Assembly (NCBI GenBank): GCA_964551735.1
Contig: CAZKEF010000014.1
Span: forward strand, 54,820 to 118,819
Direction: 5' to 3'
DNA length: 64,000 nt
From: an uncultured Anaerolineales bacterium
GTDB taxonomy: Bacteria; Chloroflexota; Anaerolineae; CG2-30-64-16
Part shown: positions 1,415 through 54,882 of the stretch, one piece after another
How the letters are laid out: each line of letters begins with the position of its first letter
Position numbering within the stretch: position 1 is the stretch's first letter
The notes under the pieces: generated by a model
The model's input: the letters and a program-made list of their open reading frames with translations, nothing else
Told to the model about the DNA's origin: nothing
Database searches by the model: none
Translations under genes and position numbers: made by a program

Positions 1415-1482
1415 CCTGGAATCGAGGCTTCAGCCGGTTATGTGCTCCGCCCAGAGAGACCGGCTAAAGCCTCGATTCCGGA
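1415..1482. repeat. REP-like palindromic interspersed element, family A (core GAATCGAGGCTTYAGCCGG ... CCGGCTRAAGCCTCGATTC)
   Basis: Near-identical copies at 11695-11757, 11782-11847, 12880-12948 and 28835-28897, plus a half-copy at 41929-41956. Confidence 0.7.
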
Positions 1483-2678
1483 TGATTTCCGGCCGCTTCG
1501 TTCAGTTCCGCCACCAGCCGCGCCAGCGCCGCCCCGCCGATGCCCCGTGCCGCGGCCGCCTGGCTGATCGGCTCCCAGAACGGCACGGGGCTGTCCGCAC
1601 ACGGGATGCCGTAACGCTCGAAGACTGCCCGCGTCCCCGGCCAGGCCTCGGCCACGAACACCGTGGACATGGTGGGCGTCACCTCTCCCCCTGCCCCCTC
1701 TCCTGCCAGGCGAGGGAGTACCGCTCCGCCCCCTTCCCTCGCAGGGAAGGGGGATGGGGGGTTAGGTCCCAACACCCGCGTCGCATTCCCGCCCAGGATG
1801 TCCGCCCGCACATCGTCCGGTAGCCCCAGCGCAGCGATCTCCGCCAGGAACGGCCGGAAGTCGGGCTCGGCCTGGCTTCGGGGGTAGAGCCGCAGCGGGT
1901 AGTCGGAGGCGTAGAGCAGCTTGCGGTGATCCACGCAGCGCAGCGCCACGTCGAAGATCTCGTGCGTGCGGTATTGCAGCGGCGACGCGGCGGTGTCGTA
2001 CCACACGTTGCGCAGCGTCCGCCGCACCTCCGGCATCAGCTCGTAGAAGAAGAGCCCACCGCCCCAGTGCGCCAGGATCAGCCGCAGCTCCGGGTAGCGG
2101 CTCGCCAGGCGATAATAATCGCGCAGCGGCGTCGTGGCCTTGCCCGGATAGAAGCCGCCGACCTCCTCGTTGGTGTGCAGGTTGATCGGGATCTCGTAGC
2201 CGATGCACGCCTCGGCCAGGCGCAGAAACGCGGGATCGTCCAGGCGGTAGCCCTGGCCGTAGGGGCCGAGCTCGCCCACGCCGACCATGCCGCCGTCCAG
2301 GCAGCGGGCGAGCTCGTCCAGCGCGGCCTGGCCGGCCAGCGGCTGGAGGATGGCGAACGCGCTCACCCGGTCCGGCCAGCGGCGGATGATTTCGAGCGCT
2401 TCGCTGTTGCGCGCCGCGCAGCCCTCGTGCGACCGGCGATACTCGCCCATCAGCACGACGCGATCCACGCCGGCCGCGTCCATGTGCGCGATCATGCACT
2501 CGGCCGTGGCCCAGCCCTGGAGGCTCTGCCCGCCGGGCCGGGGCGCCAGCATCTGGCCCCAGAACGGCTCGGCCGCGATGAACGCGTCCAGGTCGGCCGC
2601 CAGCGACGGCGGGGTGTAGTGGACGTGTGCGTCAATCAGCATGGTGCCCCTCCACCGGTTCGTCCGGCGCTGATGCAC
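1464..2678 (-). CDS. Amidohydrolase-2 family metal-dependent hydrolase with C-terminal DUF1858-like extension; ORF contains two interspersed palindromic elements
   Basis: The N-terminus has IDAHVH, then the family motifs HTNE, ILAHWGG and YASDYP. The C-terminal ~70 aa FERYGIPCADSPVPFWEPIS resembles DUF1858. A ~110-nt GC-rich palindromic element (1681-1790) is translated in-frame, and the stop codon TAG lies inside a REP-like element (1415-1482). Confidence 0.6.
   Translation of the reverse strand: MHQRRTNRWRGTMLIDAHVHYTPPSLAADLDAFIAAEPFWGQMLAPRPGGQSLQGWATAECMIAHMDAAGVDRVVLMGEYRRSHEGCAARNSEALEIIRRWPDRVSAFAILQPLAGQAALDELARCLDGGMVGVGELGPYGQGYRLDDPAFLRLAEACIGYEIPINLHTNEEVGGFYPGKATTPLRDYYRLASRYPELRLILAHWGGGLFFYELMPEVRRTLRNVWYDTAASPLQYRTHEIFDVALRCVDHRKLLYASDYPLRLYPRSQAEPDFRPFLAEIAALGLPDDVRADILGGNATRVLGPNPPSPFPAREGGGAVLPRLAGEGAGGEVTPTMSTVFVAEAWPGTRAVFERYGIPCADSPVPFWEPISQAAAARGIGGAALARLVAELNEAAGNHPESRL
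1681..1790. repeat. GC-rich double-hairpin element, family E, in-frame inside a CDS
   Basis: ~85% identical to 3878-3990. Contains palindromes CCCTTCCCTCGCAGGGAAGGGG and CTCTCCTGCCAGGCGAGGGAG. Confidence 0.65.
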
Positions 2679-3162
2679 GGGCGCGCGTAACCTTGCGCAG
2701 CGCGACAGCCAGCGAGTCGCCGGGCTGGATGTCCACGTCGGCCAGGATGCGCGTCACGTAGGCTTCGATCTCGTTGAAGCCGCTGGCGCGGGCCACTGAC
2801 ACCCGATGGTTGCCATCGGAGACAAAGTAGACGCTGCCCACCTGAAAGACCTCGATGGGCGGCACCCCGATGAACTCGGCCATGGTCACATCAATCCGCA
2901 CCCAGCGATCCCGATCCACCGCGCCGCGCGGGTGGAAATGCCGCGTGAAATCCTGCGACCGGCCCGTGCTGCCCACGATCCGGTCGAGTGGGATGGACTG
3001 CGGCTGAGGCAGGCGCAACCGGCCGTAGTCGCGCAACGCGGCCATCAGGGTGTTGAACGGCAGCAGGTCGGCCGGCCGGCCCGTCAGGCGCGCGCAGAGA
3101 TCCTCGCGGATCGCTGCCCAGCGAGCTTTGAAAAACAATTGCCGGCCGACGTAAAAGCTCAC
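2632..3162 (-). CDS. Hypothetical protein with ParB/sulfiredoxin-like domain
   Basis: Motif IEVFQVGSVYFVSDGNHRVSVARASG resembles the ParB/Srx DGxHR..A core. Start codon uncertain. Confidence 0.4.
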   Translation of the reverse strand: MSFYVGRQLFFKARWAAIREDLCARLTGRPADLLPFNTLMAALRDYGRLRLPQPQSIPLDRIVGSTGRSQDFTRHFHPRGAVDRDRWVRIDVTMAEFIGVPPIEVFQVGSVYFVSDGNHRVSVARASGFNEIEAYVTRILADVDIQPGDSLAVALRKVTRARASAPDEPVEGHHAD

Positions 3163-3180
3163 TTTGCTCCTGCCTGCATC

Positions 3181-4412
3181 TCACCCAAAAACGGTGCGCA
3201 TCCGCTCGCAGTAATACTGCACATTCTCCCACCGGGCATCTGGCGGGATGCGGTGGTCGGGGCAGGGGATGTAGCCGCCCAGGTCCACCAGTGGCCGGAG
3301 CCGTTCGATCTCGGCGTCAATCGCCGCGTAGTCGTAGGCAAAGACCTTCTTGTCCATGCCACCCACGCCCCGCAGCGCCCGGCCGTACTGCGCCCGCCAC
3401 GGCGCGATGCTGGCGTGCCAGGTGCCGACCTCGATGGGAAACATGGTGTTCACGCCGTTCTCCAGCCAGATCGGCAGCAGCTTATCAATCATACCGTCGC
3501 AGTCCAGCGACACGATGCCGATGCCGTGGTCGTTCAGCAGCCGCGTGATCCGCCGGTAGTGCGGGCCGACCAGCCTGGCAAACAAGCGCGGGTTCACCAG
3601 CGGGCCGTTCTTGAAGCAGATGTCCTCCCAGAAGTGACCGTAGTCGAAGGGGATGCCCGTTGCCAGCACCGCAGTCGTGCCTTGATAGCTCAGCTCGGCC
3701 ACGGTCTCGATCATCTCCTCCAGCAGGGCGGGATCATCCGCGGTCAGATAGCTTAACCCCACCACGCCCAGCCAGTTGCGGATGACGCCGAAGAGGCTGC
3801 CGCACCACAGGCCGCGTGGGAACGAGGGCTCCTCGGCCAGCAGGACCTCCCGGCCGCCCCCGTCGAAGCGCAGGGACCTCACCCCCCTGCCCGCCCTGCG
3901 GGCGTCTCCTGCGAGGAGAGGGGGAATCTGCTCCCCTTCCCTGGCAGGGAGGGGGCTGGGGGGTAGGTGAACCCTTGCGCGCCCTAACCGGCTTTCGGTG
4001 TACCGCAGCCGCGGCCGGAAGATGCGCTCCCACTCGACACGCCCCTTCAGCAGGTGGTCAATCTCCGCCGGGATCGAGACGACGTCATCCTTCTCCAGCA
4101 CGATGGCGCCATCCCTGTCGAGCACGTGCCGCGCGCCATCAGGCAGCTCGGCGACCACGCGGCGGCGGAAGGCGGGCTGCAAGCCCAGGTACGGGCCGAA
4201 GACGCCGCCCCAGCCGAAATCAAAGCCCAGGCGCTCACACAGGGCGCGATCATAGGCGTTGTTATCGTACCAGCCGGCGGCCAGGGTCTTGCTGATGTGC
4301 CCCTCGGCCGCCCACTTCTCCAGCGTCTCGTCCCAGTAGCCGAAATGGACGATCGGCAGCCGGTCGTAGGGCTGATAGTTCAGGATCGCCAACGTCTGCT
4401 CGCGGTTGTTCA
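3181..4412 (-). CDS. URO-D-like family protein, paralog 2, with in-frame palindromic element insertion
   Basis: The likely true start is the internal ATG giving MNNREQTLAILNYQPYDRLPIVHF, a typical URO-D-like N-terminus. The N- and C-terminal halves are family-like, separated by an in-frame GC-rich palindromic element (3878-3990) encoding PPSPLPAREGEQIPPLLAGDARRAGRG. Confidence 0.6.
3878..3990. repeat. GC-rich double-hairpin element, family E, in-frame inside URO-D paralog 2
   Basis: Paired with 1681-1790. Same orientation and same reading frame (PPSP[FL]PAREG). Confidence 0.65.
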
Positions 4413-5975
4413 TCGTATGCTCTCGCTGCTTGCAGTCATCCTGCCCTTGTCTGCGGCAGCGGCGTTGGCGCGAGCCGCGGTCACGTCCGCTGCCATCTGC
4501 TCGACCGTCTTCACGTGCAAACGCGCAGCGCCACGGTAGTCGCGCGTTCGAACTCGCGTGCCATTGCGCTCGGCCTCCGCCAGGCCCGCGGCGGCCTGGG
4601 AAATCTCGGCGGCGTATTGCGGAAGCCATTGGGCCTCTGCGACCAACATCTCATCGGTCATTTGCCAAACCTCCTCCGGGTTGCACACCGCGCCGACCAG
4701 GGGATCGTGTAACATGGCCTGCTTGAGCAGCAGCACATCACCCCGCACCGCGGCCTCCATGCCCATCTCCTGAACGCGCACGCTGGCTGCGCAGGTGGCC
4801 GCACACGCCAGAGGCAAAGCGCCCACCACCGGCATGTTGATGCCGGTCCTGTCCACATAGCCAGGAATCTCGACCACGCACCCGTCAGGCAGGTTGGTGA
4901 TGTGGCCACGGTTGATCACATTGAAATGGCCTCGGTAGATGCGACCGGTCTCCAAGGCCTCGATAATGTAGGAGCCGTGCTCCTCGCTCCGATTGGCTGG
5001 GGTGATCGCGGGCGGCTCCTCGGCCAGCCACTGTGGGAAGTCGGTCTCGAACCAGTGCCGTCCCTCGGAACACACGCGCAGATAGCCGCCGGATTCGCCA
5101 TTGATCCAACTCGAAAGATCGATCCATTGCCCGATCTCTTCCGGCCGCTTCCGGTACCACGGCAGGTATTCGCTCAAGTGGCCGTTAGATTCGGTGCTGT
5201 AGTAGCCGAAGCGTCGCAGGACGTCCACGCGCACCTTCTCGCTCTGCCGGTACTCCGGGTGGCGCCCGAAAAGCTCGGGCAGAAGCGGGATCATGTCCCG
5301 CCCGCGCCATTCCGCTTTGACGAACCAGGTCTGGTGGTTGATGCCGGCGGCGACGACGTCAACCTCGCGGCGGTGCATTTCGTAGTCCGGCGGGATGAGG
5401 CCCTGCTCCTTCGCCCACATCTCCACGCAGCGCGTGATCTGCCAATGCGCGCCCTGCACGCCGTGACACAGCCCCACCGTGGGCACGCCACCGTACCGAT
5501 TGCAGGCCCATGTGTTCATCGCCATCGGGTTCGAGTAATTCAGGAGGAGCGCTCCCGGCTTGGCAACTTCGCGCATATCCCGACAGATGTCGAGCAGCGC
5601 CGGAATGGTGCGCTGCGCATAGAACAGGCCACCAGCACAGATCGTGTCGCCGACGCATTGATCCACCCCGTACTTGAGCGGAATGTCTATGTCGAACTGG
5701 AAGGCCTCCAACCCTCCCTGGCGGATCGTGCAAATCACGTAATCGGCGTCCGCGATGGCCGAGCGGCGCTCCAGCGTGCTGATGATCGTTGCCGGCAGCC
5801 CGTTCGCTCGGATGTCACGTTCGCAAAGCTGGGTTACCATGTCCAGGTTGGCCTGGGAAATGTCCATCAGGGCAAAGGCAGTGTCGGCCAACTCCGGCAC
5901 TGCGAGGATATCACGCATCAAGCGGCGCGTGAAACCGATGGATCCTGCGCCGATCATCGCGATCTTGATGGGCAT
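4410..5975 (-). CDS. Glycoside hydrolase family 4 (NAD/Mn-dependent alpha-glucosidase/alpha-galactosidase type)
   Basis: N-terminal Rossmann motif MPIKIAMIGAGSIGF, 521 aa, and the conserved GH4 core (CHGVQG, NHQTWF). Confidence 0.8.
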   Translation of the reverse strand: MPIKIAMIGAGSIGFTRRLMRDILAVPELADTAFALMDISQANLDMVTQLCERDIRANGLPATIISTLERRSAIADADYVICTIRQGGLEAFQFDIDIPLKYGVDQCVGDTICAGGLFYAQRTIPALLDICRDMREVAKPGALLLNYSNPMAMNTWACNRYGGVPTVGLCHGVQGAHWQITRCVEMWAKEQGLIPPDYEMHRREVDVVAAGINHQTWFVKAEWRGRDMIPLLPELFGRHPEYRQSEKVRVDVLRRFGYYSTESNGHLSEYLPWYRKRPEEIGQWIDLSSWINGESGGYLRVCSEGRHWFETDFPQWLAEEPPAITPANRSEEHGSYIIEALETGRIYRGHFNVINRGHITNLPDGCVVEIPGYVDRTGINMPVVGALPLACAATCAASVRVQEMGMEAAVRGDVLLLKQAMLHDPLVGAVCNPEEVWQMTDEMLVAEAQWLPQYAAEISQAAAGLAEAERNGTRVRTRDYRGAARLHVKTVEQMAADVTAARANAAAADKGRMTASSESIR

Positions 5976-5981
5976 CTGAGT

Positions 5982-7064
5982 TTACTCCTGATATGACCCC
6001 AGCCGCTTCGCCATTTCGACAATCGCGCGAAAAGCGGCCAGGCTGACGCTGGAGGGCACCGAATGATCGGACGAGAAGATGTAGCCGCCCGATTCCTTGA
6101 GCGCCGGCACGAGGCGCTCCATCTCAGGCCGGACGAGCGCCGGATCATCCCACAGCACGGCGTTGATCCCGCCGTGCAGCACCAGATCCTTGCCGAACTC
6201 CCGCTTCAGCGCCAGCGGGTCCATCCCGGCTTTCACTTCCAGCGGATTGAGCGCATCGAGCCCCATCGAGACCAGCTCCGGGACGAACGGGCGGATGTCG
6301 CCGCACGAGTGTAGGTGCGCCTTGATCCCCTTGGCGTGCGCCCAATCAATCGCCCGCTGGTGGAACGGCTTGAGCACCTGCCGGTACTTGCGCAACGAGA
6401 AAAACTGGTGTCCCTTATAGCCCATGTCATCCCACCAGAAGACGCTGTCGAAGCGATACCCCGCGTCCCACACGCGGTCCCAGAGCGCCAGGCTGGTCTC
6501 CAGCATCGTCTCGAAAACATCCATCAGCCAGGCGGGATCTTCGACCAGGTTCATCAGCACGCGCTCCGTGCCCAGCGTCCAGGAATGGGTGACGTCGAAC
6601 CCGAACCAGAGGGCCGCCTGCAGCCAATCCCCGCGCGCCTGCCAGATCGGATAGTTCGCGGCCAGGTACGCCCAATCAATGCGATCAGGGCTGGTCGTGA
6701 TGCGCTTCTTGGCCACCTCCCAGCTCGCCCGATCCACGATGGTGAAATCGAGGAACTCCGGTGTGGAAGCCTCATGCTTCCACTCGCGCATGGTCACGCC
6801 CCAATCGCTGGTGTAGATCCTGTACTCGTCCGTTTCTTCCAGCGTCCGTTTTTCATACTGCGGCGAGCCGTCCACGAAGAGCAGGTTGACGCGGTCAATA
6901 TCGAAGTAATCCTCGAAGTCAACCCCCTCGGGCAGCCCTTCGCCGCGCCAACGCTCAATCGTGGCATGCCACGGCACGTCGGTGATGGGGACGCGGTCCG
7001 CCGCGCGGTGCTCGAACATGCGCGTGAAGCGCTCTTTGGTTGTGAGTTTGGGTTGAATCATCAT
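5982..7064 (-). CDS. URO-D-like family protein, paralog 3 (H-x-C motif present: HLHSCGD)
   Basis: 360-aa ORF, family-like throughout, with an HSC motif. Confidence 0.65.
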   Translation of the reverse strand: MMIQPKLTTKERFTRMFEHRAADRVPITDVPWHATIERWRGEGLPEGVDFEDYFDIDRVNLLFVDGSPQYEKRTLEETDEYRIYTSDWGVTMREWKHEASTPEFLDFTIVDRASWEVAKKRITTSPDRIDWAYLAANYPIWQARGDWLQAALWFGFDVTHSWTLGTERVLMNLVEDPAWLMDVFETMLETSLALWDRVWDAGYRFDSVFWWDDMGYKGHQFFSLRKYRQVLKPFHQRAIDWAHAKGIKAHLHSCGDIRPFVPELVSMGLDALNPLEVKAGMDPLALKREFGKDLVLHGGINAVLWDDPALVRPEMERLVPALKESGGYIFSSDHSVPSSVSLAAFRAIVEMAKRLGSYQE

Positions 7065-8323
7065 GACAGGCCGACCACCCGTCCCTCGCGCCGCGCCTGC
7101 TCGGCTGCAAACACCATCAGGTGCGTCTCCAGCGACTCGGCCGGGCCGGAGAGGATCAGCGACGGGTCGCCCGTGCGCAGCGCGCCGACGAAGTGCGTCA
7201 TCAGCGCCAGGTCTCCGCCGCCGTGGCCGCTCAGAATCGAGCCATCGCTGGCGGTCTCCGCGTCGATCCGTTCCGTCGTGTCGGTCATGAAGTCGTACAC
7301 CTCGATGAACCGCCCGTTGCCGTAGAGCTCCCCGCGCGTCCCGAAGATCCGCGTCTCGCGGTCGCGCTGGCGGTTGAAGGCGGTCATGGTGAAAGAGGCC
7401 GTCGCGCCGCCTTCGAACTGCATGGCGACCACCTGGTGGTCCACCACGTCGTTGTCGCAGGCGTAGACGCAGCGGCCGTACGGCCCCGTGCGCAGCGCGG
7501 CCAGCAGCCCCGCCTCGCTCACGTCCGGCGTCAGCACGTTGAGCGGCCAGCCGGTGATGCCGCGCCGCAGGCCGGTCAGGTAGATGCGCGGCGCCGAGTA
7601 GGGACAGGATGTCTCAACGGCGCAGTCCAGGCAGCGGTCGGCCGCGCCGGCGGGCCGGTTTTCGGGCCGGAAGTGCAGCAGGCTGCCGAAGGAGGAGACG
7701 AGCGTGCAGGGCCGGCCCATGATGTGCCGGAGCCAATCCAGGTCGTGGCACGATTTCGCCAGCAGCATGGAGGACGACTCGGCCTCGTTGCGCCAGTTGC
7801 CGCGCACGAAGGAGTGCGCCTGGTGCCAGAAGCCCACCGGCTCCAGGTGCTGGATGCTGGCGATCTCGCCCAGCCGGCCGGAGTCCACGATCGCCTTGAC
7901 CTTCTTGGTGTAGGCCGTGTAGCGCAGCACGTGACACACCGCGAACATGGCCCCGCTGGCCTGCGCCGCGGCGGCGATCTGCCGGCACTCGGCCGCGGTC
8001 GGCGCCATCGGCTTCTCCAGCAGGATATGGTAGCCGCGCTCCGCGAAAGCGACCGCCGGCTCGGTGTGCAGCGCATCGGGCGTGGCGATGATGACCGCAT
8101 CGGCGAAGCGGGGCTGCGCAGCGGCCTCCCGCCAGTCGGCGTAAACGTTACCGGCCGGGATGCCGTGGCGGGCAGCCAGCGCCGCGCGGTAATGCTCGCG
8201 CGGCTCGGCCACGCCCACCACCTGCGCCTGGTCGGGATGCCAGTGCGCGTACTCGGCGTAGTTGGCCCCGCGGCTGCCGGCGCCAATGATGAGCAATTTG
8301 ATCGGTGACATCAAGATACACTC
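7061..8323 (-). CDS. Gfo/Idh/MocA-family NAD(P)-dependent oxidoreductase (in-frame with upstream GT1, no intervening stop)
   Basis: The internal start MSPIKLLIIGAGSRGANYAEY is preceded by GAAGGAGTG. Gfo/Idh/MocA N-terminal Rossmann fold, and the C-terminal domain is family-like. Confidence 0.65.
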   Translation of the reverse strand, partial: ECILMSPIKLLIIGAGSRGANYAEYAHWHPDQAQVVGVAEPREHYRAALAARHGIPAGNVYADWREAAAQPRFADAVIIATPDALHTEPAVAFAERGYHILLEKPMAPTAAECRQIAAAAQASGAMFAVCHVLRYTAYTKKVKAIVDSGRLGEIASIQHLEPVGFWHQAHSFVRGNWRNEAESSSMLLAKSCHDLDWLRHIMGRPCTLVSSFGSLLHFRPENRPAGAADRCLDCAVETSCPYSAPRIYLTGLRRGITGWPLNVLTPDVSEAGLLAALRTGPYGRCVYACDNDVVDHQVVAMQFEGGATASFTMTAFNRQRDRETRIFGTRGELYGNGRFIEVYDFMTDTTERIDAETASDGSILSGHGGGDLALMTHFVGALRTGDPSLILSGPAESLETHLMVFAAEQARREGRVVGLS

Positions 8324-9598
8324 CTTCTGCAGGCTAGTTTCCACCCGCGCCACCACCGCCACGGCACGGGCGATGCCATCCTCAGCCCGAATCTTGCGCC
8401 CCAAATCGGCCGCGCGCCGGCGCATCTCCGCATCGGTCACGGCCCGGTGAATCGCGGCCGCCAGCCGCTCGGCCGTGAGCTGCTTGCGCGGGATCGGCGC
8501 CGGCCCGACCCCCAGGTCGGCCACGCGGCGGCCCCAGAACGGCTGATCCCCGAAGAAGGGCACGACGACGGACGGCACACCCGCTCGCAGCCCGGCCGCT
8601 GTGGTGCCCGCGCCGCCGTGATGCACCACGGCCGCCATGCGCGGGAAGAGCCAGGCGAAGGGCGCGGTTTCCAGCATGAAGACGGAATCCGGCAGGTCAG
8701 CCACCTGCAAGCCGCCCCAGCCGGCCAGCACCACCGCCCGCTCCCCCGTTTGCCGCAGCGCGTGCACGATCAGGCCGGCGGTTTGGGCCGGGTTGCTGAT
8801 GCTCATGCTGCCGAAGCCGATGTAGACGGGCGGCGGGCCGGACTGCAAAAACGCTGCCAGGGTCGGCGGCGGCGTCCAATCTTCCCCCGCATCCAGGAAC
8901 CAGTAGCCGGTGACGTGTACCTCTGGTCCCCCGTCGTCCGGCGGCGGGATCACGGCCGGGCTGAAGCCGTAGAGCACCGGATGCCGGCAGAAGCGCTCGC
9001 CCCGGAACGGCCCGGCCAGGGGCGACGGCGGCAGTCCCAGCACCTTCTGGCGCACCAGGCGGTCGGCGGCCCGAAACGGCTGCCACATCATCTGCCGCGC
9101 CAGGTGATAGGAAGGACGGTTGAGGGCCCCGCCCAGCCAGGACGGCAGCCCCGGCAGCAGGAAGCTGGGATAGGCGCGGGTCGGCGTGAAGGGGATGTAG
9201 TGCGCCTGGATGAACGCCAGGTCCAGCTTCTCGGCCAGCGCGTAGCCCACGAACAGCCCGCCGACGCCGGCCAGCACCGCGTCCATACCGCGGCAGGCCG
9301 CCAGCCCGCCCTCGGCCAACTCCACCGCGCCCCGCTCCGCCTCCCGCGCCATGCGCGCCAGGATGGCGGCGAAGTTGCCCCGCTCCAGCAGTGCGCTCAT
9401 CTCCTGGCCTTGGGCGACCTGCTGCGAGTCGCCCACAATCGGCCAGAACTCGACCCCGTGCGCCGCGGCCAGGCCGGCGAAGTTGCCGTGCGTCACCAGT
9501 CGCACGGCATGGCCGGCCGCAGCCAACCCCTTGCCCAGCGCCAGATACGGCTCGACGTCGCCGCGGCTGCCCGGCGCAACGATTGCGATACGCATTAT
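8324..9598 (-). CDS. GT1-family UDP-glycosyltransferase (MGT/OleD-like)
   Basis: MRIAIVAPGSRGDVEPYLALGKGLAAAGHAVRLVTH is an N-terminal GT1 motif, and the C-terminal half carries the PSPG-like UDP-sugar motif (HHGGAGTTAAGLRAGVPSVVVPFFGDQPFW). The ORF track joins it to the downstream oxidoreductase as one 907-aa ORF. Confidence 0.65.
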
Positions 9599-9599
9599 G

Positions 9600-11666
9600 T
9601 CACCCTCGCCCTGCAAACAGCGCCAGCAGCGCCGGACCGCGCACGAAGACCGGGATGCGCGCCAGCGGCGCGTCGGCGGTGATGGTGACGCCGCCCACCT
9701 GCGCCGCGCCCGTCCAGGCATCGTACCACACCGCCCCCGCCGCCGCATCATCGTAGGGGCGGGGTTCCCCTGCCCTGGCTGCATCGGCGGTCTGCGGCCG
9801 CGGGCAGGGAGACCCCGCCCCTACGAGCGCCGGCAGGTAGACCGAGCGGCCGGTCGCGCCCTGCCGCAAGACCGGCGCCACCAGCACATCCGGCCCGAAC
9901 ATGAACTGATCCTCGACCTCGTAGCAGGCCGGATCATCGGGGAAGTCGAAGAAGAGCGGCCGCATGGGCGGCGCGCCGGTCGCTGCAGCAGTCGCCATCT
10001 GCGCCAGGATATACGGCTTCAGGCGCTCCCGCAAGAACAACAGGTCGCGGATGATAGCGTAGGCCTCGTCGCCGAACGACCAGGCCTCGTTGGGGCCGCC
10101 GGCGTCCCACCCCACCGTCGGCTGGCGCATCCCGTGCAGCCGGAAGAGCGGGCAGAAGACGCCGTACTGGAACCAGCGCACGATCAGCTCGCGGAAGATC
10201 GGATCGGCCGGATCGCCGCCGTGGAAGCCGCCGATATCGGTCGTCCACCACGGGATGCCGCTGAGGCCGATGTTCAGCCCGGCGCGTACCTGGGCCCGCA
10301 GCGCCTCGAAGGTGGAGGGGATGTCGCCCGACCAGACCGCCGCGCCGTAGCGCTGGCTGCCGGCCCATGCGGAACGGCAGAGGGTCACGACGTCCGCCTC
10401 CCCCTCGGCCTTCATGCCTTCCCAGAACGCCTGCTGGTGCAGCAGCGGGTAGAGGCCGGCCACCTCCAGCCCGTTGCCCAGGTGATAGCGCAGGTTCTCG
10501 TGGTCGGGCGGATAGACCTCCGGCTCGCACGCGTCCAGCCACCAGACCCTGACGCCGTGGCGATAGTAGCCCTCGCGCACGCGCTCCCAGATGAAGCGCC
10601 GCGCCTCCGGGTGGGTGGCGTCGTAGTAGCGCAGGTGCACCGGGCCGTTCGCACCCACATCGGTGAACGCCATGTGGCTGGGCTGGCCGCGCTCGGCGCG
10701 CACCAGCAGGCCACGGCGGTCCATCTCCTCGTAGGTCTCAGCGGCCGGGTTCACTGCGGGCCACACGGACACCATCAGCTTGACCCCCAGGTCGTCCAGC
10801 TCACGCACCATCGCCGCCGGATTGGGCCAGGCGGCCGGATCGAAGCGCCACTCGCCCATGCGGGTCCAATGGAAGAAGTCGGCCACAATCACGTCCAGCG
10901 GCAGGCCGCGGCGGTGATACTCGCGCGCCACGGCGAGCAGTTCCTCCTGGCTGCGGTAACGCAGCTTGCACTGCCAGAAACCGACCGCCCACTCGGGTAG
11001 CACAGGCGCGTGGCCGGTCGCGTCAGCGTAGTGGGTCATGATCTCGGCGCAGGAGCCGGCCGTGACCCAATAATCCAACTGGCGGCTCGCCTCGGCAACC
11101 CAGCGCGTGCCGTTGCAGCCCAGTTCCACCCGGCCGACCGCGGGGTTGTGCCACAGGAAGCCGTAGCCGCGGCTGGAGACCAGGAAGGGGATGCTGACCT
11201 CGGTGTTGCGGTGCCACAGATCCACTACGCAGCCCTTCTGATCCAACAGGCCGTGCTGGTGCTGGCCCAGGCCGTAGAAGCGCTCCCCGACGGCGGGCTG
11301 GAACTCGGCCGAGATGTGGTACAGGTCGCTGCTGGCCGGCTTGAACCCGCGCGCCGGCGGCCGGATGAAGCGCGGCGTTGGCTCGGCCAGCAGCAGCGCG
11401 CCGGTGGCCGTATCGGTAAAGCTGATCTGCCCCTCGACGGTCACGTCGGCGCGCAGCCGGCCAACCCGAATAGTGGCAATCTCCGCCCCGACCGTGATCT
11501 CGGCCGCGACCGGCGCAGGCGCCAGCAGCGCGCCCGGCAGCTCATCGCATACTTCGATGCCCTGGGTGGCGCGCACGCGCAAGCTATCGGCGCCCCACGG
11601 CTCGATGCGCACCGTCTCATGTCCGCCCCGCCACAGGAGGGCGTTTGGTTCGTGTGTAAATGACAT
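9600..11666 (-). CDS. Glycoside hydrolase family 31 (alpha-glucosidase/alpha-xylosidase, YicI-like)
   Basis: GH31 catalytic region WWLDACEPE and a conserved N-terminus MSFTHEPNALLW. The C-terminal region contains an in-frame ~70-nt perfect hairpin element (9752-9825). Start chosen at the internal ATG (11664-11666) just downstream of a REP-like element. Confidence 0.75.
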   Translation of the reverse strand: MSFTHEPNALLWRGGHETVRIEPWGADSLRVRATQGIEVCDELPGALLAPAPVAAEITVGAEIATIRVGRLRADVTVEGQISFTDTATGALLLAEPTPRFIRPPARGFKPASSDLYHISAEFQPAVGERFYGLGQHQHGLLDQKGCVVDLWHRNTEVSIPFLVSSRGYGFLWHNPAVGRVELGCNGTRWVAEASRQLDYWVTAGSCAEIMTHYADATGHAPVLPEWAVGFWQCKLRYRSQEELLAVAREYHRRGLPLDVIVADFFHWTRMGEWRFDPAAWPNPAAMVRELDDLGVKLMVSVWPAVNPAAETYEEMDRRGLLVRAERGQPSHMAFTDVGANGPVHLRYYDATHPEARRFIWERVREGYYRHGVRVWWLDACEPEVYPPDHENLRYHLGNGLEVAGLYPLLHQQAFWEGMKAEGEADVVTLCRSAWAGSQRYGAAVWSGDIPSTFEALRAQVRAGLNIGLSGIPWWTTDIGGFHGGDPADPIFRELIVRWFQYGVFCPLFRLHGMRQPTVGWDAGGPNEAWSFGDEAYAIIRDLLFLRERLKPYILAQMATAAATGAPPMRPLFFDFPDDPACYEVEDQFMFGPDVLVAPVLRQGATGRSVYLPALVGAGSPCPRPQTADAARAGEPRPYDDAAAGAVWYDAWTGAAQVGGVTITADAPLARIPVFVRGPALLALFAGRG
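9752..9825. repeat. ~24-bp-stem perfect hairpin element inside the GH31 C-terminal coding region; its 5' end GTAGGGGCGGG matches family C
   Basis: CGTAGGGGCGGGGTTCCCCTGCCC ... GGGCAGGGAGACCCCGCCCCTACG seen directly. Confidence 0.55.
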
Positions 11667-11694
11667 AGGATTACCCGAGATAGGATCATGCTCT

Positions 11695-11847
11695 GGCATC
11701 GAGACTTTAGCCGGTTTGTTGCTCAACGCGAGTGACCGGCTGAAGCCTCCATTCCATCGGATCGCGATGTTGCAGGATTCCTGGATTCGAGGCTTTAGCC
11801 GATTGGACTCGCAACTCAGAGAGACCGGCTGAAGCCTCGAATCCGGG
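11695..11847. repeat. Two tandem family-A REP-like elements immediately upstream of the GH31 start
   Basis: Direct comparison with the other family-A copies. Confidence 0.7.
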
Positions 11848-12981
11848 CTATCTCGTCTCCAGCGCCGCGCGAATCATCGCAAAATACCCCGCATCCGGCA
11901 CGTAATCCGGCACCGAGTTGCCCGTGCCCAGGGCATAGCCGCCGCGGCCGGCCGTGCGTTCCAGCATGGCGCGGGCGCGGGCGTAGACCTGGTCGGGCTC
12001 GGCCCGACAGACGAAGTCCACATCGATCCCGCCGATAATGGCGAAGCGGTCATGGTAGCGTTCATAGGCCTCTTCAACCGGCAGGATGGTGTCCTCGTAA
12101 GAATGGCGGGCATCAATGCCAATGTCGGCCATGTCACCCAGGATGCGCTCGAAGTGCCCGCACGAGTGCAGGATCACTGGCTTGCCGGCCGCGTGGATGG
12201 CCGCGACGATGCGCTTGTGCCACGGGAAGACGTACTGGCGCATCTGACGCGGGGAGAGCATGGTCTGCGTCTTGAAGCCCCAGTCGTCGTTGTCAATGCA
12301 CGCGCCCACGGCGGGATGCGCCGCGGCGATCTCATAGTAGCGCACCAACGTCTCGCCCACGGCCTCGAAGACGCACTCGACCAGGTCCGGGTCGTCGGCC
12401 AGCAGCAGGCAGAGCTTCTCGAAACCCATGATCTCAGTCACATTCTCCAGCACGCCGCCCGGCCCGTAGGCGATCAGCTTCATCCCGTCCGGCATTACCC
12501 CAGCCAGCGCGTCGAAAATACCATAGTCGGCCGCCTCGACATCCGGCCAGCGGTAGGCCTCGTAAGAGGGCCAATCCACGATCAGCCCGCCGGCGTTGAG
12601 CGACACCGTGCGGCCGGTGAAATCGCGGCCGGTGGGGAAATCGAAGCCCGGCACGCGCACGTTGCTGAAATCATAACCGGCGCGGTAATAGGCCTGCAAG
12701 ACCCGGCGCTCGGTGCGATACGGGCTGTCGGGAATGGAAGCCAGCGGCGCCAGCCGCTCGTGCAGCCGGTCGTTGAGGAAGAACTCGAACAGGGTAGGCC
12801 GCGCAGGGACCTCCCGGCGCAGGACGGCCAGCAGGTTGTTGAAATCAGGCCTGGGGGCCGGCAAATCGTACCAGTCATCCTGGAGTCGAGGCTTTAGCCG
12901 ATCTGTCTCCTCAAGGGAAGCAACCGGCTGAAGCCTCGATTCCGGATATTCTGCTGACACACTGGAAACCCCATCAATCAT
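11848..12981 (-). CDS. URO-D-like family protein, paralog 4 (H-x-C: ILHSCGH); N-terminal region reads through a REP-like element
   Basis: GGAGGGG SD 6 nt upstream of the ATG at 12979-12981 (MIDGVSS). Residues PESRLQPVASLEETDRLKPRLQ are encoded by REP element 12880-12948. A downstream in-frame TTG is an alternative start. Confidence 0.6.
   Translation of the reverse strand: MIDGVSSVSAEYPESRLQPVASLEETDRLKPRLQDDWYDLPAPRPDFNNLLAVLRREVPARPTLFEFFLNDRLHERLAPLASIPDSPYRTERRVLQAYYRAGYDFSNVRVPGFDFPTGRDFTGRTVSLNAGGLIVDWPSYEAYRWPDVEAADYGIFDALAGVMPDGMKLIAYGPGGVLENVTEIMGFEKLCLLLADDPDLVECVFEAVGETLVRYYEIAAAHPAVGACIDNDDWGFKTQTMLSPRQMRQYVFPWHKRIVAAIHAAGKPVILHSCGHFERILGDMADIGIDARHSYEDTILPVEEAYERYHDRFAIIGGIDVDFVCRAEPDQVYARARAMLERTAGRGGYALGTGNSVPDYVPDAGYFAMIRAALETR
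12880..12948. repeat. Family-A REP-like element, in-frame within the 5' end of URO-D paralog 4
   Basis: Sequence identity to the other copies. Translated as PESRLQPVASLEETDRLKPRLQ. Confidence 0.65.
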
Positions 12982-18080: not shown

Positions 18081-18094
18081 GCGTGTTGTTAGCA

Positions 18095-18146
18095 ACGACT
18101 TCAGTCAGCCGATAGCTGCAAGGCGACTGAAGTCGCTACTACGAGC
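18095..18146. repeat. Family-B palindromic element (AACGACTTCAGTCR ... CGACTGAAGTCGCTACTACGA)
   Basis: Second copy at 40399-40450. Confidence 0.6.
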
Positions 18147-23691: not shown

Positions 23692-24852
23692 ATGAATGCC
23701 ATCGTCCTGTCCCCCCATTTTCCGACCAACTTCTACAATTTCGCCGTGGCACTGCGCCGGGCTGGGGTCAACACCCTGGGTATCGCGGATGAGCAATACG
23801 ACAGCCTGCGGCCCGAGCTGCGCGCTGCGCTGTCGGAGTACTACCGCGTGACCAACATGGAGGACTACGACCAGCTTTTCCGCGCGGTCGCGTATTTCAG
23901 CTTCAAGCACGGCAAGATTGACCGCTTCGAGTCGCACAACGAGTATTGGCTGACCACCGAGGCGCGCATCCGCACTGACTTCAACATCCCCGGCATCAGG
24001 ACCGACCAGATCGCCTTCATGAAGCACAAGTCGCTGATGAAGGCGAAGTTCATCGAGGCCGGCGTGCCGGTGGCCCGCGGCCGTGTGGTCCGCTCCTGGG
24101 ACGAGGCGCACGCGCTGCTCGCTGAGACAGGCTATCCCGTGGTGGCCAAGCCGGACAGCGGCGTGGGGGCGGCGCATACTTACCGCATTGACAACGACGC
24201 CGCGCTGGCTCACTTCTTCGCCACCAAGCCGCCGATCGACTACATCATGGAAGAATTCATCCGGGGCGTGATCTATTCATTCGATGGGCTGGCCGGGCAC
24301 GACAGCGAACCGATCTTTTGGACCTCCCACGTGTTCGCCCAGGGGATCATGGAGACGGTGAACGAGGATCACGACCTCCACTACTACTCGCTGCGCCAAC
24401 TGCCGGCCGACCTGGAAGATGCCGGCAAGCGCACCGTGCGGGCGTTCGGCGTGCGTGCACGCTTCTTCCACATCGAGTTCTTCCGCACCCCTGATGGCCG
24501 CATCGTGGCGCTGGAGGTGAACATGCGGCCGCCAGGTGGCTTGAGCATGGACATGTTCAACTACGCCAACGATGCCGACCTGTACCAGGAATGGGCCAAC
24601 CTGATCGCAGGCCAACCCGTGCGCACGGAATACGGCCGGCCCTACCACGTGGCGTTTGCGGGCCGCAAGCAGCACAAGGCCTACCGCCACACCCACGAAG
24701 AGGTCTTGGCCACCCTTGGCGGCATCGTAGCGCACCACGAACCCATGAGCCCCATCTTCGGCCCGGTGATGGGTCACTATGCCTACCTGCTGCGCTCGCC
24801 CGACGAAGGGACGATCCGGGACGCGATCGGGTATGTGTTGGAGTTGGCGTAG
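23692..24852 (+). CDS. ATP-grasp domain protein (carboxylate-amine ligase-like)
   Basis: ATP-grasp core GYPVVAKPDSGVGAAHTY plus a C-terminal ligase-like region. Confidence 0.65.
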   Translation: MNAIVLSPHFPTNFYNFAVALRRAGVNTLGIADEQYDSLRPELRAALSEYYRVTNMEDYDQLFRAVAYFSFKHGKIDRFESHNEYWLTTEARIRTDFNIPGIRTDQIAFMKHKSLMKAKFIEAGVPVARGRVVRSWDEAHALLAETGYPVVAKPDSGVGAAHTYRIDNDAALAHFFATKPPIDYIMEEFIRGVIYSFDGLAGHDSEPIFWTSHVFAQGIMETVNEDHDLHYYSLRQLPADLEDAGKRTVRAFGVRARFFHIEFFRTPDGRIVALEVNMRPPGGLSMDMFNYANDADLYQEWANLIAGQPVRTEYGRPYHVAFAGRKQHKAYRHTHEEVLATLGGIVAHHEPMSPIFGPVMGHYAYLLRSPDEGTIRDAIGYVLELA

Positions 24853-24976
24853 GGGGTAGGGGCGGGTTTTGCCCGGTTAACGCAAGCTCGCCTTACTCGG
24901 CAGCAGCATGATGGCGACAAATTCCCCGTTGACGCGGAGAAATCCGCCCCTACAACTGGTTTTGAACACACTCAAA

Positions 24977-28804: not shown

Positions 28805-28834
28805 TGGGAGACTAACGATCTGGGCTTTGCGGTC

Positions 28835-28897
28835 CAGAATCGAGGCTTCAGCCGGTCTTTCAGGGCAACCCAAGCAGCCGGTTGAAGCCTCGACCCC
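28835..28897. repeat. Family-A REP-like element in a convergent intergenic region
   Basis: Sequence identity to the other copies. Confidence 0.65.
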
Positions 28898-28923
28898 CGA
28901 GCGCTATTGCCCCGCAACAACTG

Positions 28924-33817: not shown

Positions 33818-34011
33818 GATACTGCTGGCGCCATTTACCTGTATCCAAACGGGGTTAGCTGTGGTATACTGGCATTTGTCGTTTATTTCACCCCAATGAC
33901 AACATCGCAGTAAGAACACATGGAGGTGCGCTGCTGACTCAAAACTGCACAGAACATTCCCCACACATTCCATTCACGCATTCCGTTCACTTACCCAAAG
34001 GGAGGATCACA

Positions 34012-36201
34012 GTGAGAACCAATCTGTCACGTTTCATCATGATCGTCGTCGCCCTGGCGATGATCGCCGCATTCCTGACTGGCTGCCCCAGCCCTGCGAC
34101 CCCAGCCCCGGCAACGACCGGCGGCCAGACCGAGGCAGGCAAGGTGCCGGTAGGCATCGTGCTGCCGACCAAGGACGAACCCCGCTGGATCCAGGACCAG
34201 ACCCGCTTCCAGGATGCACTGAAGGCCGCGGGCTACGACGTCCAGATCCTGTTCAGCCAGGGCGATTCCGCCAAAGAGAAGGCCAACGTCGAGGCGCTGA
34301 TCAGCCAGGGCATCCAGGTCTTGGTCATCTGCCCGCATGATGGCACAGCGGCGGCGGCCGCCGCGGATGCTGCCCGCGCTGCGGGCGTGAAGGTCATCTC
34401 CTACGACCGCTTGATCCGCGACACCGACGCGGTAGACTACTACGTCACCTTCGACTCGGTCGCGGTCGGCGAGGCCTGGGGCCAGTACCTGGCCGACATG
34501 GCCGGCGCCACCAAGGGCAACAACCTCTACCTCTACGCCGGCGCGGCTTCCGACAACAACGCCTTCCTCTTCTTCGAGGGTGCCTGGAACAAGCTGCAGC
34601 CCAAGATCGCCGACGGCACCTTCGTCATCAAGAACTCCAGTGAAGCCGTCGCCCTGCAAGGCAAGGCCACGCTGACCCGCGACGAGATGGCCAAGATCAT
34701 CGGCCAGGTCACCACCAACTGGGATTTCGCCGTCGCCAAGAACCTCGCCGAGGCTAACCTCACCGCGGCCAAGCCCGAGGATAAGGGTACCGTCTTCATC
34801 GCCGCGCCCAACGACGGCACCGCCCGCTCCATTGCCGATGCCTTCGCCGCCGACAAGGAAGTCACCAAGTACTACATCACCGGCCAGGACGCCGAGAAAG
34901 CCTCCGTCCAATACATCATTGACGGCAAGCAGTCCATGACCGTCCTCAAGGACGTCCGCACCCTGGTCAGCGACGCCATCACCGCGGCCGTCGCCTACCT
35001 CAAGGGCGGCACGCCTGAGAAGACCACCACCTACAACAACGGCAAGATTGACGTGCCAGCCAAACCGTCCGCCATCGTCACCGTCACCCAGGACAACGTC
35101 AAGGCCGCCATCGTTGACTCCGGCTACTACCCGGCCAGCGACTTCCCGACCCTGGGCGCGGCCGCCCCTGCCCCGACCGGCAAGGTGCCGGTAGGCATCG
35201 TGCTGCCGACCAAGGACGAACCCCGCTGGATCCAGGACCAGACCCGCTTCCAGGATGCACTGAAGGCCGCGGGCTACGACGTCCAGATCCTGTTCAGCCA
35301 GGGCGATTCCGCCAAAGAGAAGGCCAACGTCGAGGCGCTGATCAGCCAGGGCATCCAGGTCTTGGTCATCTGCCCGCATGATGGCACAGCGGCGGCGGCC
35401 GCCGCGGATGCTGCCCGCGCTGCGGGCGTGAAGGTCATCTCCTACGACCGCTTGATCCGCGACACCGACGCGGTAGACTACTACGTCACCTTCGACTCGG
35501 TCGCGGTCGGCGAGGCCTGGGGCCAGTACCTGGCCGACATGGCCGGCGCCACCAAGGGCAACAACCTCTACCTCTACGCCGGCGCGGCTTCCGACAACAA
35601 CGCCTTCCTCTTCTTCGAGGGTGCCTGGAACAAGCTGCAGCCCAAGATCGCCGACGGCACCTTCGTCATCAAGAACTCCAGTGAAGCCGTCGCCCTGCAA
35701 GGCAAGGCCACGCTGACCCGCGACGAGATGGCCAAGATCATCGGCCAGGTCACCACCAACTGGGATTTCGCCGTCGCCAAGAACCTCGCCGAGGCTAACC
35801 TCACCGCGGCCAAGCCCGAGGATAAGGGTACCGTCTTCATCGCCGCGCCCAACGACGGCACCGCCCGCTCCATTGCCGATGCCTTCGCCGCCGACAAGGA
35901 AGTCACCAAGTACTACATCACCGGCCAGGACGCCGAGAAAGCCTCCGTCCAATACATCATTGACGGCAAGCAGTCCATGACCGTCCTCAAGGACGTCCGC
36001 ACCCTGGTCAGCGACGCCATCACCGCGGCCGTCGCCTACCTCAAGGGCGGCACGCCTGAGAAGACCACCACCTACAACAACGGCAAGATTGACGTGCCAG
36101 CCAAACCGTCCGCCATCGTCACCGTCACCCAGGACAACGTCAAGGCCGCCATCGTTGACTCCGGCTACTACCCGGCCAGCGACTTCCCGACCCTGAAGTA
36201 A
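34012..36201 (+). CDS. Sugar ABC substrate-binding lipoprotein with two identical tandem SBP domains (perfect 1041-bp in-frame duplication)
   Basis: GTG start after AAGGGAGG. Signal peptide with lipobox LTGC. Residues ~44-390 and ~391-729 are identical, matching nucleotides 34138-35155 and 35179-36196. Confidence 0.7.
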   Translation: MRTNLSRFIMIVVALAMIAAFLTGCPSPATPAPATTGGQTEAGKVPVGIVLPTKDEPRWIQDQTRFQDALKAAGYDVQILFSQGDSAKEKANVEALISQGIQVLVICPHDGTAAAAAADAARAAGVKVISYDRLIRDTDAVDYYVTFDSVAVGEAWGQYLADMAGATKGNNLYLYAGAASDNNAFLFFEGAWNKLQPKIADGTFVIKNSSEAVALQGKATLTRDEMAKIIGQVTTNWDFAVAKNLAEANLTAAKPEDKGTVFIAAPNDGTARSIADAFAADKEVTKYYITGQDAEKASVQYIIDGKQSMTVLKDVRTLVSDAITAAVAYLKGGTPEKTTTYNNGKIDVPAKPSAIVTVTQDNVKAAIVDSGYYPASDFPTLGAAAPAPTGKVPVGIVLPTKDEPRWIQDQTRFQDALKAAGYDVQILFSQGDSAKEKANVEALISQGIQVLVICPHDGTAAAAAADAARAAGVKVISYDRLIRDTDAVDYYVTFDSVAVGEAWGQYLADMAGATKGNNLYLYAGAASDNNAFLFFEGAWNKLQPKIADGTFVIKNSSEAVALQGKATLTRDEMAKIIGQVTTNWDFAVAKNLAEANLTAAKPEDKGTVFIAAPNDGTARSIADAFAADKEVTKYYITGQDAEKASVQYIIDGKQSMTVLKDVRTLVSDAITAAVAYLKGGTPEKTTTYNNGKIDVPAKPSAIVTVTQDNVKAAIVDSGYYPASDFPTLK
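34138..36196 (+). repeat. Perfect tandem direct repeat, 2 x 1018 bp joined by a 23-bp linker (period 1041 bp = 347 codons)
   Basis: Identical ORF-track entries 34533-34868 and 35574-35909, and identical nucleotide lines offset by 1041 bp. Confidence 0.85.
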
Positions 36202-40299: not shown

Positions 40300-40520
40300 A
40301 TGCAACGATCCGCGTTCATCCGCGCTCGTCCGCGTCCGATTTTTGGGTTAGTTTTTCATGCCGCGGGCGACGCCGAGGCTGGTGAGAATGTTCGTAATAA
40401 CGACTTCAGTCGTTCGCCGCGGGCCACGGCGACTGAAGTCGCTACTACGAACCGATCCGTTTTCAGGGCAGGGGCGGGTTTTCTGCGCGCTCATCGGTGG
40501 TCTGCCGTTGCCCCCAACTA
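40300..40520. repeat. Repeat nest in a 390-nt convergent intergenic region: family-D 30-mer (40308-40340; second copy 41879-41913), family B (40399-40450), family C (40468-40520)
   Basis: Direct sequence comparison. Confidence 0.55.
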
Positions 40521-41753: not shown

Positions 41754-41994
41754 GGGTTGCCTCCTGGGAGCAAATGTTGTACGATAGGCGTCGTAAATTG
41801 CTATGCCAGTATATCACAGGTGCTTGATCCATTCTGGATTCAATGCCCGCCTGCAATCCCGTCCAAAGACGAAACTGGGTATCCGCATTCATCCGCGCTC
41901 GTCCGCGTCCAATGCCTGGCGCAGCGCGTGTGACCGGCTGAAGCCTCGTTTTCACATCAACGAGAATGATACCGGTAGCCGATGAGTATCGCTT

Positions 41995-54770: not shown

Positions 54771-54882
54771 TAGGGGCGGGTTTCTGCGCGTTAACAGCGG
54801 ACAGCCGTTGCCGCACTGTCGTCAACAACAGGCAGGCGTGCATTAACCGCGGAAGACCCGCCCTATTGAATTGGAGGATTCA

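Follow-up and report, generated by a model that had tools for sequence, protein, structure and literature searches.

Do the genes of uncultured Anaerolineae carry palindromic repeats in frame within their coding sequences, and if so, what are these repeats? The question is raised by a 64,000-nucleotide stretch of contig CAZKEF010000014.1 (positions 54,820 to 118,819; hereafter the window), taken from the metagenome-assembled genome (MAG) of an uncultured Anaerolineales bacterium, in which hairpins had been predicted inside genes for a GH31 enzyme, an amidohydrolase and two URO-D-like paralogs. The sequence bears out all five predicted placements, with hairpins that fold more stably than shuffled controls. 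Most probably they represent three or more families of dispersed repeats (called here A, E and H), each small, non-coding and able to form hairpins, some copies of which stand in frame inside genes. Orthologs lack the corresponding peptides, so that the segments are not ancestral protein sequence, and the elements are multi-copy and not unique; alignment to element-free orthologs places the inserts in loops, in a linker and at termini. Comparison loci, syntenic or partly so, came from seven relatives (L001, L003, L004, L005, L006, L007 and L248). The survey covered the 64-kb window and these loci.

Filled and empty sites in four host genes

The GH31 alpha-xylosidase-like gene (9600-11666, minus strand) contains the Pfam GH31 domains and matches the solved alpha-xylosidase MeXyl31 (PDB 5zn6) with E = 3.8e-205. 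Its start, the ATG at 11666, was set by alignment with orthologs, which open with MxPF..EPNALLWRGG. Within this gene, 90 nt on the minus strand (9738-9827) encode in frame the peptide LVGAGSPCPRPQTADAARAGEPRPYDDAAA, which is found neither in orthologs nor in 5zn6. The syntenic orthologs L001, L003 and L004, at 84-87% amino acid identity (84 and 87% for L001 and L003), lack exactly these 30 residues, and both the frame and the flanking sequence are intact on either side of the insert. In the alignment with 5zn6, a single residue of the latter separates VYLP from G.W.D.TG (633 to 635); the window protein has 31 residues there. Likewise, the Pfam domain Glyco_hydro_31_3rd is split at profile position 50, exactly where the hairpin begins. 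The arms of the hairpin are 25 nt long (9751-9775 and 9802-9826), 92% complementary and separated by a 26-nt spacer; the fold energy is -65.8 kcal/mol (z = -6.7 against shuffled sequences). The hairpin predicted at 9752-9825 is thus confirmed, although the true insertion extends beyond its 76 nt to the full 90 nt. The insert is clean and, on the scale of this clade, recent, and it lies in a loop that joins two strands of the distal beta-sandwich domain.

URO-D-like paralog 2 (3181-4413, minus strand; 410 aa), whose ATG overlaps the GH4 stop as ATGA, contains the double hairpin E2 (3877-3969 by the family consensus, minus strand), which encodes approximately LPPSPLPAREGEQIPPLLAGDARRAGRGV. Its best 120 homologs are nearly all 384-385 aa long and lack the extra segment; compared with L007 and with over 100 homologs, the insert adds 24-27 aa (~80 nt). 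The site is empty at the DNA level in L007, where V-TTNG-R.LRF stands in place of the double hairpin, and filled in the window, P0001-P0003 (85-86% identity) and L004 only. Among the four filled paralog-2 genes there are indels of +9, -3 and -3 nt within E2, all of which keep the frame (+9 and -3 between the window and L004). An AlphaFold2 model of the protein built from 66 sequences has a mean predicted local distance difference test (pLDDT) score of 89.9, which falls to ~50 over residues 151-180; the E2 peptide is modelled as a loop between the strands at 147-149 and 180-182.

The amidohydrolase ORF (1464-2642, minus strand; 392 aa) joins a Pfam Amidohydro_2 domain (residues 15-304) to a conserved C-terminal domain. 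The linker between them carries the double hairpin E1 (1680-1769, minus strand), which encodes PNPPSPFPAREGGGAVLPRLAGEGAGGEV, shares its core and frame with E2 and matches the E consensus from metagenomes. E1 is confined to the clade of the window (P0241-P0247), while the linkers of other homologs are about as long but unrelated; within the clade the element has changed in frame, by +20 aa in P0247/L003 and +8-9 aa in P0244/P0245. The combination of Amidohydro_2 with the ~65-aa C-terminal domain recurs in over 100 homologs at identities as low as ~60%, among them Armatimonadota MAGs and one MAG labelled as a Nitrososphaerales archaeon. The linker is always variable and 30-40 aa long, and most of these homologs lack E sequence. 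The two-domain architecture is therefore ancestral, and the earlier suggestion that an element had fused the two domains is refuted. The label DUF1858 for the C-terminal domain was not borne out either, since these 68 aa have no Pfam match at E <= 0.01. The linker of this protein has been independently colonised by three element families.

At the 3' end of the same ORF lies the family-A hairpin A1 (1415-1481, minus strand). As predicted, it supplies the stop: the TAG at 1464-1466 is located in the GCTTTAGCC arm of the element, which also provides the last five codons (PESRL). The C-terminal tail beyond ELNEA(I/A)G is hypervariable among homologs, and only the window and P0242/L004 share the ending ESRL*.

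URO-D-like paralog 4 (11848-12981, minus strand) is 377 aa long if the ATG at 12981 is its start; the public gene call P0121, identical in sequence, begins at this ATG. Directly after codon 3 lies a 99-nt insertion (12874-12972, minus strand) that bears the family-A hairpin A3 (12880-12945) and encodes GVSSVSAEYPESRLQPVASLEETDRLKPRLQD. The element had been placed at 12880-12948 in the 5' coding region; the placement holds, but the hairpin is slightly shorter and the insertion longer than that interval. The A3 arm reads GCTTCAGCC where A1 reads GCTTTAGCC, in the same frame and with no stop, and is read through as had been proposed. The empty-site ortholog in L007 reads ATGCTTGATTGG (MLDW), its ATG overlapping the upstream stop, and paralog-4 homologs usually open with M.DW..LP.P.PDF. 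The site is filled in L005 (99 nt) and in L006, whose insert is the same but for a 9-nt deletion and a 39-nt hairpin nested in it, neither of which shifts the frame; in the window and L005 the 99 nt follow directly upon ATGATTGA(T). Upstream of the ATG at 12981 stands GGAGG, and this ATG overlaps the upstream stop as ATGATTGA; L005, L006 and L007 are arranged likewise. ATG, GGAGG and the D-W after the insert are retained whether the site is filled or empty. When the window is compared with L005, paralog 4 is 92%, 94% and 68% identical at codon positions 1, 2 and 3, indicating that the gene is under purifying selection.

Palindromic elements lying in frame within genes, the core of the original prediction, were thus found as multi-copy sequences at tolerant sites, with empty-site orthologs for GH31, paralog 2 and paralog 4. 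The comparisons establish filled and empty orthologous sites, the multi-copy status of the elements, their loop, linker and terminal positions, and a frame kept through later indels.

Related insertions were seen in the relatives. The nested hairpin in L006 (1319-1460) has the arms CACCTGCACTTGCG/CGCAGGTGCAAGTG and lies in frame in the family-A element of the paralog-4 ortholog. In L248 (1501-2697) the amidohydrolase linker contains a family-A hairpin in a different frame (SGIEPSGG...KPAKASS), and in L249 (1356-2717) the same linker contains a CATCCTGAGCG-type hairpin, 198 nt long and folding at -108 kcal/mol. The GH31 ortholog of L003 (7572-9617) has 8 extra aa (PSTGSGQA) in its N-terminal domain, and GIEASAG in its C-terminal tail is a family-A arm in another frame. 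A GTAG unit in the linker of a 2-oxoacid dehydrogenase E2 of L001 (15111-15135) is in the same frame as the GH31 copy and gives VGAGSPRP (VGAGSPRPSP). In L003 (14719-14737) an E-like segment, PSPLSSQEKGEGAKGV, stands at the same position of that linker; both proteins have repeats of the QYAIRST type.

Repeat families and probable translation of the inserts

Each arm of the GH31 element opens with GTAG, next to which stands an 8-bp G/C stem, and we therefore read H as two inverted GTAG-tagged repetitive extragenic palindromic (REP) units. Both arms open with CGTAGGGGCGGGG, so that GTAG stands as a REP tag at the outer end of each unit. The unit stem, GGGCGGGG-TCT-CCCTGCCC, is a short imperfect palindrome of 8 bp of G/C with one G-T pair, and the two inverted units with a short spacer have the layout of a REPIN dimer; similar doublets occur in L008 and L016. 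H has the structure by which GTAG REP dimers are defined. The 64-kb window contains one doublet with the H stem and five further GTAGGGGCGG-headed units with other stems. The unit GTAGGGGCGGGGTnnCCCnGCCC lies in the relative L001, and a scan of one genome per species recovered it from more than 120 contigs of many phyla, mostly as an intergenic single hairpin or doublet; represented are Chloroflexota, Cyanobacteria, Poribacteria, Planctomycetota, Deltaproteobacteria, Firmicutes and others.

Family A is made of inverted repeats of the MITE type (miniature inverted-repeat transposable elements), small and with no transposase ORF: arms of 22-24 nt (~CCGGAATCGAGGCTTYAGCCGG) enclose a variable loop of 20-24 nt in an element of 65-70 nt. 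It occupies six sites in the window. Besides A1 and A3, these are two tandem intergenic hairpins separating the paralog-4 stop from the GH31 start (11693-11756 and 11780-11847, together 11693-11847), an intergenic copy between convergent genes (28829-28904) and a partial copy, a single arm, between divergent genes (41919-41954). Their folding z-scores against shuffled controls range from -5.6 to -7.8. With further sites in L001 and L003-L006, there is about one copy per 5-10 kb. Family A was seen in this Anaerolineae clade only; no collection-wide scan was run for it.

Family E is a Y-shaped, GC-rich double hairpin of 85-95 nt, likewise built as a MITE-type inverted repeat, with outer arms CCTAACCCCCC/GGGGGGTGAGG. 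In the very widespread element that it matches, outer arms ACCTAACCCCC/GGGGGAGAGGT surround the inner hairpins CCCCCTTCCCT-GCG-AGGGAAGGGGG and CCCCTCTCCT-TGC-AGGAGAGGGG. The fold z-scores of the two window copies are weaker, -3.0 and -2.5. Both copies have the same orientation and frame and read PPSP[FL]PAREG, as PNPPSPFPAREGG and LPPSPLPAREGE, with a common core. The two in-frame copies had been noticed correctly, although their original right limits, 1790 and 3990, overshoot the consensus ends by ~20 nt. In addition to its two window sites, E occupies a non-orthologous site in L003, so that A and E are both present as multiple dispersed copies. The E core, with the same two-hairpin architecture, recurs across phyla, in more than 120 metagenome contigs, where it sometimes forms the terminal repeats of ~115-nt MITE-like units.

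About 5 of the 20 copies in the window are intragenic and the rest intergenic; between 14 and 64 kb all elements lie between genes, several of them abutting stop codons. No Rfam family reached gathering score when the entire window was scanned, and none matches A, E or H; full-text literature searches with the element sequences found nothing.

The element segments are probably translated, because the later indels inside them are all multiples of three. At least seven such indels, all frame-preserving, are spread over E2, the A3 copy of L006, and the E1 copies of P0247 and P0244/P0245. Furthermore, all four internal inserts are themselves multiples of three bases, and the domains on either side of the inserts are conserved. 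The encoded peptides that would span the junctions include VYLPALVGAGSP, RVHLPPSPLPAR and MIDGVSSVSAEYPESR. Translational bypassing and RNA-level removal of the segments were set aside, since neither requires preservation of frame, yet every insert and indel preserves it.

The same families lie in frame in other taxa, in Pfam-confirmed valyl-tRNA synthetase, type I restriction R subunit, WD40 and TPR-CHAT proteins. In a Chloroflexota valyl-tRNA synthetase (L018, 3593-6421), a GTAG REP unit with repeated half-stems encodes VGAGSPRPEAGSPRPEAGSPRPEA between the catalytic and anticodon-binding domains. In a type I restriction R subunit (L095, 1978-5013), VVGAGSPRPGSHRP lies in the N-terminal domain. 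Stop-free frames of at least 60 codons on each side contain 41/105 E copies and 23/121 H copies, compared with 54-58% of random positions on the same contigs; this count is crude, as GC-rich contigs yield spurious ORFs, and the Pfam-confirmed hosts number six only.

We propose the following course of events. The elements would usually reside between genes, often touching stop codons, and now and then one copy would insert into coding DNA. Such a copy would survive only if it adds a multiple of three bases, brings no stop in the frame read and falls at a position where the protein tolerates an extra disordered peptide, be it in a surface loop, in a beta-turn, in a linker between domains or within a few codons of either end of the gene. 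Of the sites seen here, one is a loop between beta strands, one a beta-hairpin turn with pLDDT ~50 and one an inter-domain linker; the others are the extreme N- and C-termini. The element would then be transcribed and translated with its host protein as filler rich in G, P, R, E and A, and be passed on vertically. Mobilisation of H may be due to a RAYT-type enzyme. We infer that the host proteins remain functional.

Known repeats and rival explanations

The closest known match is the GTAG/CGTC REPs inside genes (Di Nocera et al. 2013, PMC3733652). GTAG repeats are known from Chloroflexi, their dimers encode 20-30 aa, their ends can supply TAG stops, and their inserts lie in linkers, loops and termini (PMC3733652). 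The GH31 element is alike in its GTAG tag, its 8-bp G/C stem, its inverted dimer and its 30 encoded aa; TAG stops from repeat ends and inserts in linkers, loops and termini are found here too. Unlike those examples, the host is an Anaerolineae-like MAG and the genes, of a sugar and URO-D-like cluster, are not in their list, and families A and E carry neither a GTAG nor a CGTC tag.

The original prediction had likened the elements to Rickettsia palindromic elements (RPEs). As far as they are summarised in PMC10969869 (after Ogata et al. 2000, 2002), RPEs are 100-150 bp long and Rickettsia-specific, with a conserved encoded peptide in each family and almost half of the copies intragenic in some families. 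On that account the likeness lies in several palindromic families found in frame in unrelated metabolic genes, at predicted positions compatible with the fold, and retained in orthologs; in both cases insertion is in frame at structurally tolerant sites. In contrast, the elements here measure 65-95 bp, belong to a different, free-living phylum, encode unconserved peptides and are mostly intergenic (~5/20 intragenic). The likeness thus stands for behaviour but not for family membership, the GH31 element being a GTAG-tagged REP dimer; nor is membership of RPE-1 to RPE-10 expected, since homologs of the host genes are nearest in Anaerolineae/Chloroflexota MAGs.

REPINs, which are described as extragenic (Bertels and Rainey 2011, PMC3116915), share with H two inverted REP units and a spacer that form one long hairpin; they are multi-copy and vertically inherited, as is probably the case for H. 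The GH31 element differs in being intragenic, and its likeness to the REPIN/RAYT system is one of element structure. MITE, ERIC, BOX and Correia elements are fused to ORFs internally or at 5' or 3' gene ends (Delihas 2011, PMC3184786); they resemble the present repeats as small non-autonomous inverted repeats, with gene-end extensions as in A1. Unlike them, A and E showed no clear target-site duplication, and no parent insertion sequence turned up for either, no search aimed at one having been made.

It is possible, though we would not expect it, that family E (consensus ACCTAACCCCCCAGCCCCCTTCCCTGCGAGGGAAGGGGGAG ... CCCCTCTCCTTGCAGGAGAGGGGTTGGGGGAGAGGT) is an unnamed cross-bacterial repeat unusually tolerated in coding DNA, and that linkers are recurrent landing pads for alternating families. 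The thought that E is a coding palindrome comes from the 41/105 copies in long open frames of sampled metagenome contigs, against 23/121 for GTAG REP units. Candidate landing pads are the linker between the amidohydrolase and its C-terminal domain and the linker of the 2-oxoacid dehydrogenase E2.

Some observations weigh against our view that the inserts are dispersed repeats translated with, and tolerated by, their host proteins. We infer translation only from the preservation of frame. No transposase turned up for the elements, although no search for a Y1 transposase was run, and the candidate target-site duplications, 5 nt (CGGCG) at GH31 and 3 nt (GAT) at A3, are ambiguous in their low-complexity context. 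The families also behave unequally, the inner E2 hairpins decaying in L001 and L003. At the paralog-4 site, 41/42 nt of the A arms are identical in the window, L005 and L006, against 68% at third codon (synonymous) positions of the same gene, a conservation that simple neutral hitch-hiking does not predict. The A3 flank and loop, counted by eye, are ~65-75% identical between the window and L005, with many amino acid changes. The A3 peptide thus appears unconstrained and the arms constrained, for which hairpin selection, a transposase requirement or gene conversion could be the cause. Two further points, a possible start codon downstream of A3 and the single assembly that carries the GH31 insert, are taken up with the alternatives to which they belong.

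The arm conservation bears on an alternative in which the elements are kept for a role at the nucleic-acid level, as mRNA hairpins that stabilise, process or pause a polycistronic message or as protein-bound DNA sites, with their intragenic presence tolerated or selected. We think this unlikely, even though most copies are found, like REPs (PMC3733652), at 3' ends or flanked by genes that point the same way, and five of the six window copies of family A have one TTTAG and one TTCAG arm, which pair as G-U on one strand and mismatch as C-A on the other and so give the element a defined polarity. This asymmetry was checked against the transcribed strand and follows it only in part: the G-U orientation is on the mRNA strand for A1 but not for A3 or for either copy at 11693-11847. 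Gene conversion among many copies, or the needs of a transposase, would conserve the arms equally well; moreover, the E2 insert is retained in L001 and L003 while its hairpins decay, and orthologs without elements evidently function. Somewhat less probable still is that the segments lie outside the mature proteins, with true starts and stops elsewhere, or that the genes are decaying pseudogenes whose ORFs survive because GC-rich DNA seldom has stops. Long spurious ORFs are common at 65% GC, and many N-terminal "intragenic" REPs are annotation artefacts (Di Nocera et al., PMC3733652). In all three filled paralog-4 genes an in-frame TTG (the Leu of DLPAP), TTA in L007, lies 8 codons after the insert, so that the gene could start there and A3 could be 5' untranslated. 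However, the ATG over the upstream stop, its Shine-Dalgarno sequence and the D-W after A3 are conserved in filled and empty orthologs, and the codon positions of paralog 4 speak of purifying selection. In GH31, paralog 2 and the amidohydrolase, conserved domains flank the insert in the same frame, and the intra-element indels, at least seven, all preserve it.

That the segments are native palindromic protein sequence, or artefacts of MAG assembly, we regard as scarcely credible. The GH31 insertion has been found in a single assembly only, and repeats can mislead assemblers; but joining the wrong pieces would not bring back frame and sequence of GH31 on either side, and E1, E2, A1 and A3 each occur in two to seven independent assemblies. 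Orthologs lack precisely these segments, and the same nucleotide motifs recur at unrelated loci across phyla. We retain the reading of the inserts as in-frame copies of dispersed palindromic repeats: the case is a well-documented example of a phenomenon already known, in a lineage, the Anaerolineae, where it was previously undescribed.

Neighbouring features and meaning of the inserts

The window has a G+C content of 64.7%. Between 1 and 14 kb all genes are on the minus strand, in the map order URO-D-like gene, Amidohydro_2 ORF, 176-aa ORF, URO-D-like paralog 2, GH4, URO-D-like gene, glycosyltransferase, Gfo/Idh/MocA oxidoreductase, GH31 and two more URO-D-like genes. For every gene tested the nearest homologs are in Anaerolineae/Chloroflexota MAGs, and two public proteins are 100% identical to window ORFs. 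The 176-aa ORF between paralog 2 and the amidohydrolase (2632-3162, minus strand) has no Pfam match; it is kept in L001, L003 and L248 (165-176 aa) and absent from L004. The GT28/UDPGT-type glycosyltransferase (7061-9595, minus strand) has no stop codon and runs in frame into the oxidoreductase, which has its own ATG near 8310 with an AAGGAG Shine-Dalgarno sequence. In L004 a 280-nt spacer, which contains an A-like hairpin with a nested insert, keeps the two genes apart.

Further hairpins lie elsewhere in the window. Units headed by GTAGGGGCGG abut or supply the TAG stops of three genes (40563-40566, minus strand; 54768-54773 and 24850-24859, plus strand). Three more hairpin families lie between genes: GTAGTAGCGACTTCAGTCG (18090-18141 and 40390-40452), GTAGGGGCGGGTTTTGCCCGGTTAAC (15389, 54770 and 24856-24953, where the units at 24856 and 24953 form an inverted pair) and the CACCCTGAGCGG type, represented by two paired arms of 60 nt (175-308). 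A perfect 1041-bp tandem duplication (34138-35766, copies 100% identical) lies inside a long ORF (33859-36201); near 37245 there is a third copy, diverged to 74% identity. The tandem pair may reflect duplication of a domain or faulty assembly.

For annotation, the G/P/E-rich strings PSPLPAREGEG, VGAGSPRP and PESRLQP mark repeat-derived segments and not protein motifs. The locus offers clean natural gene pairs with and without an insert, for a GH31 enzyme with a close solved structure and a URO-D-like protein with a confident model. Such pairs can test how folded enzymes tolerate 25-33 extra residues derived from selfish hairpin DNA, and whether very stable hairpins in coding regions (-40 to -66 kcal/mol) affect expression. 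If the suggestions about family E and the landing pads were true, E would be a widespread RPE-like coding palindrome, and repeats would regularly supply linker and loop sequence in Chloroflexota and beyond. The inserts described here extend the phenomenon to the Anaerolineae, and the colonisation of one linker by three families bears on the origin of disordered linkers and loops.

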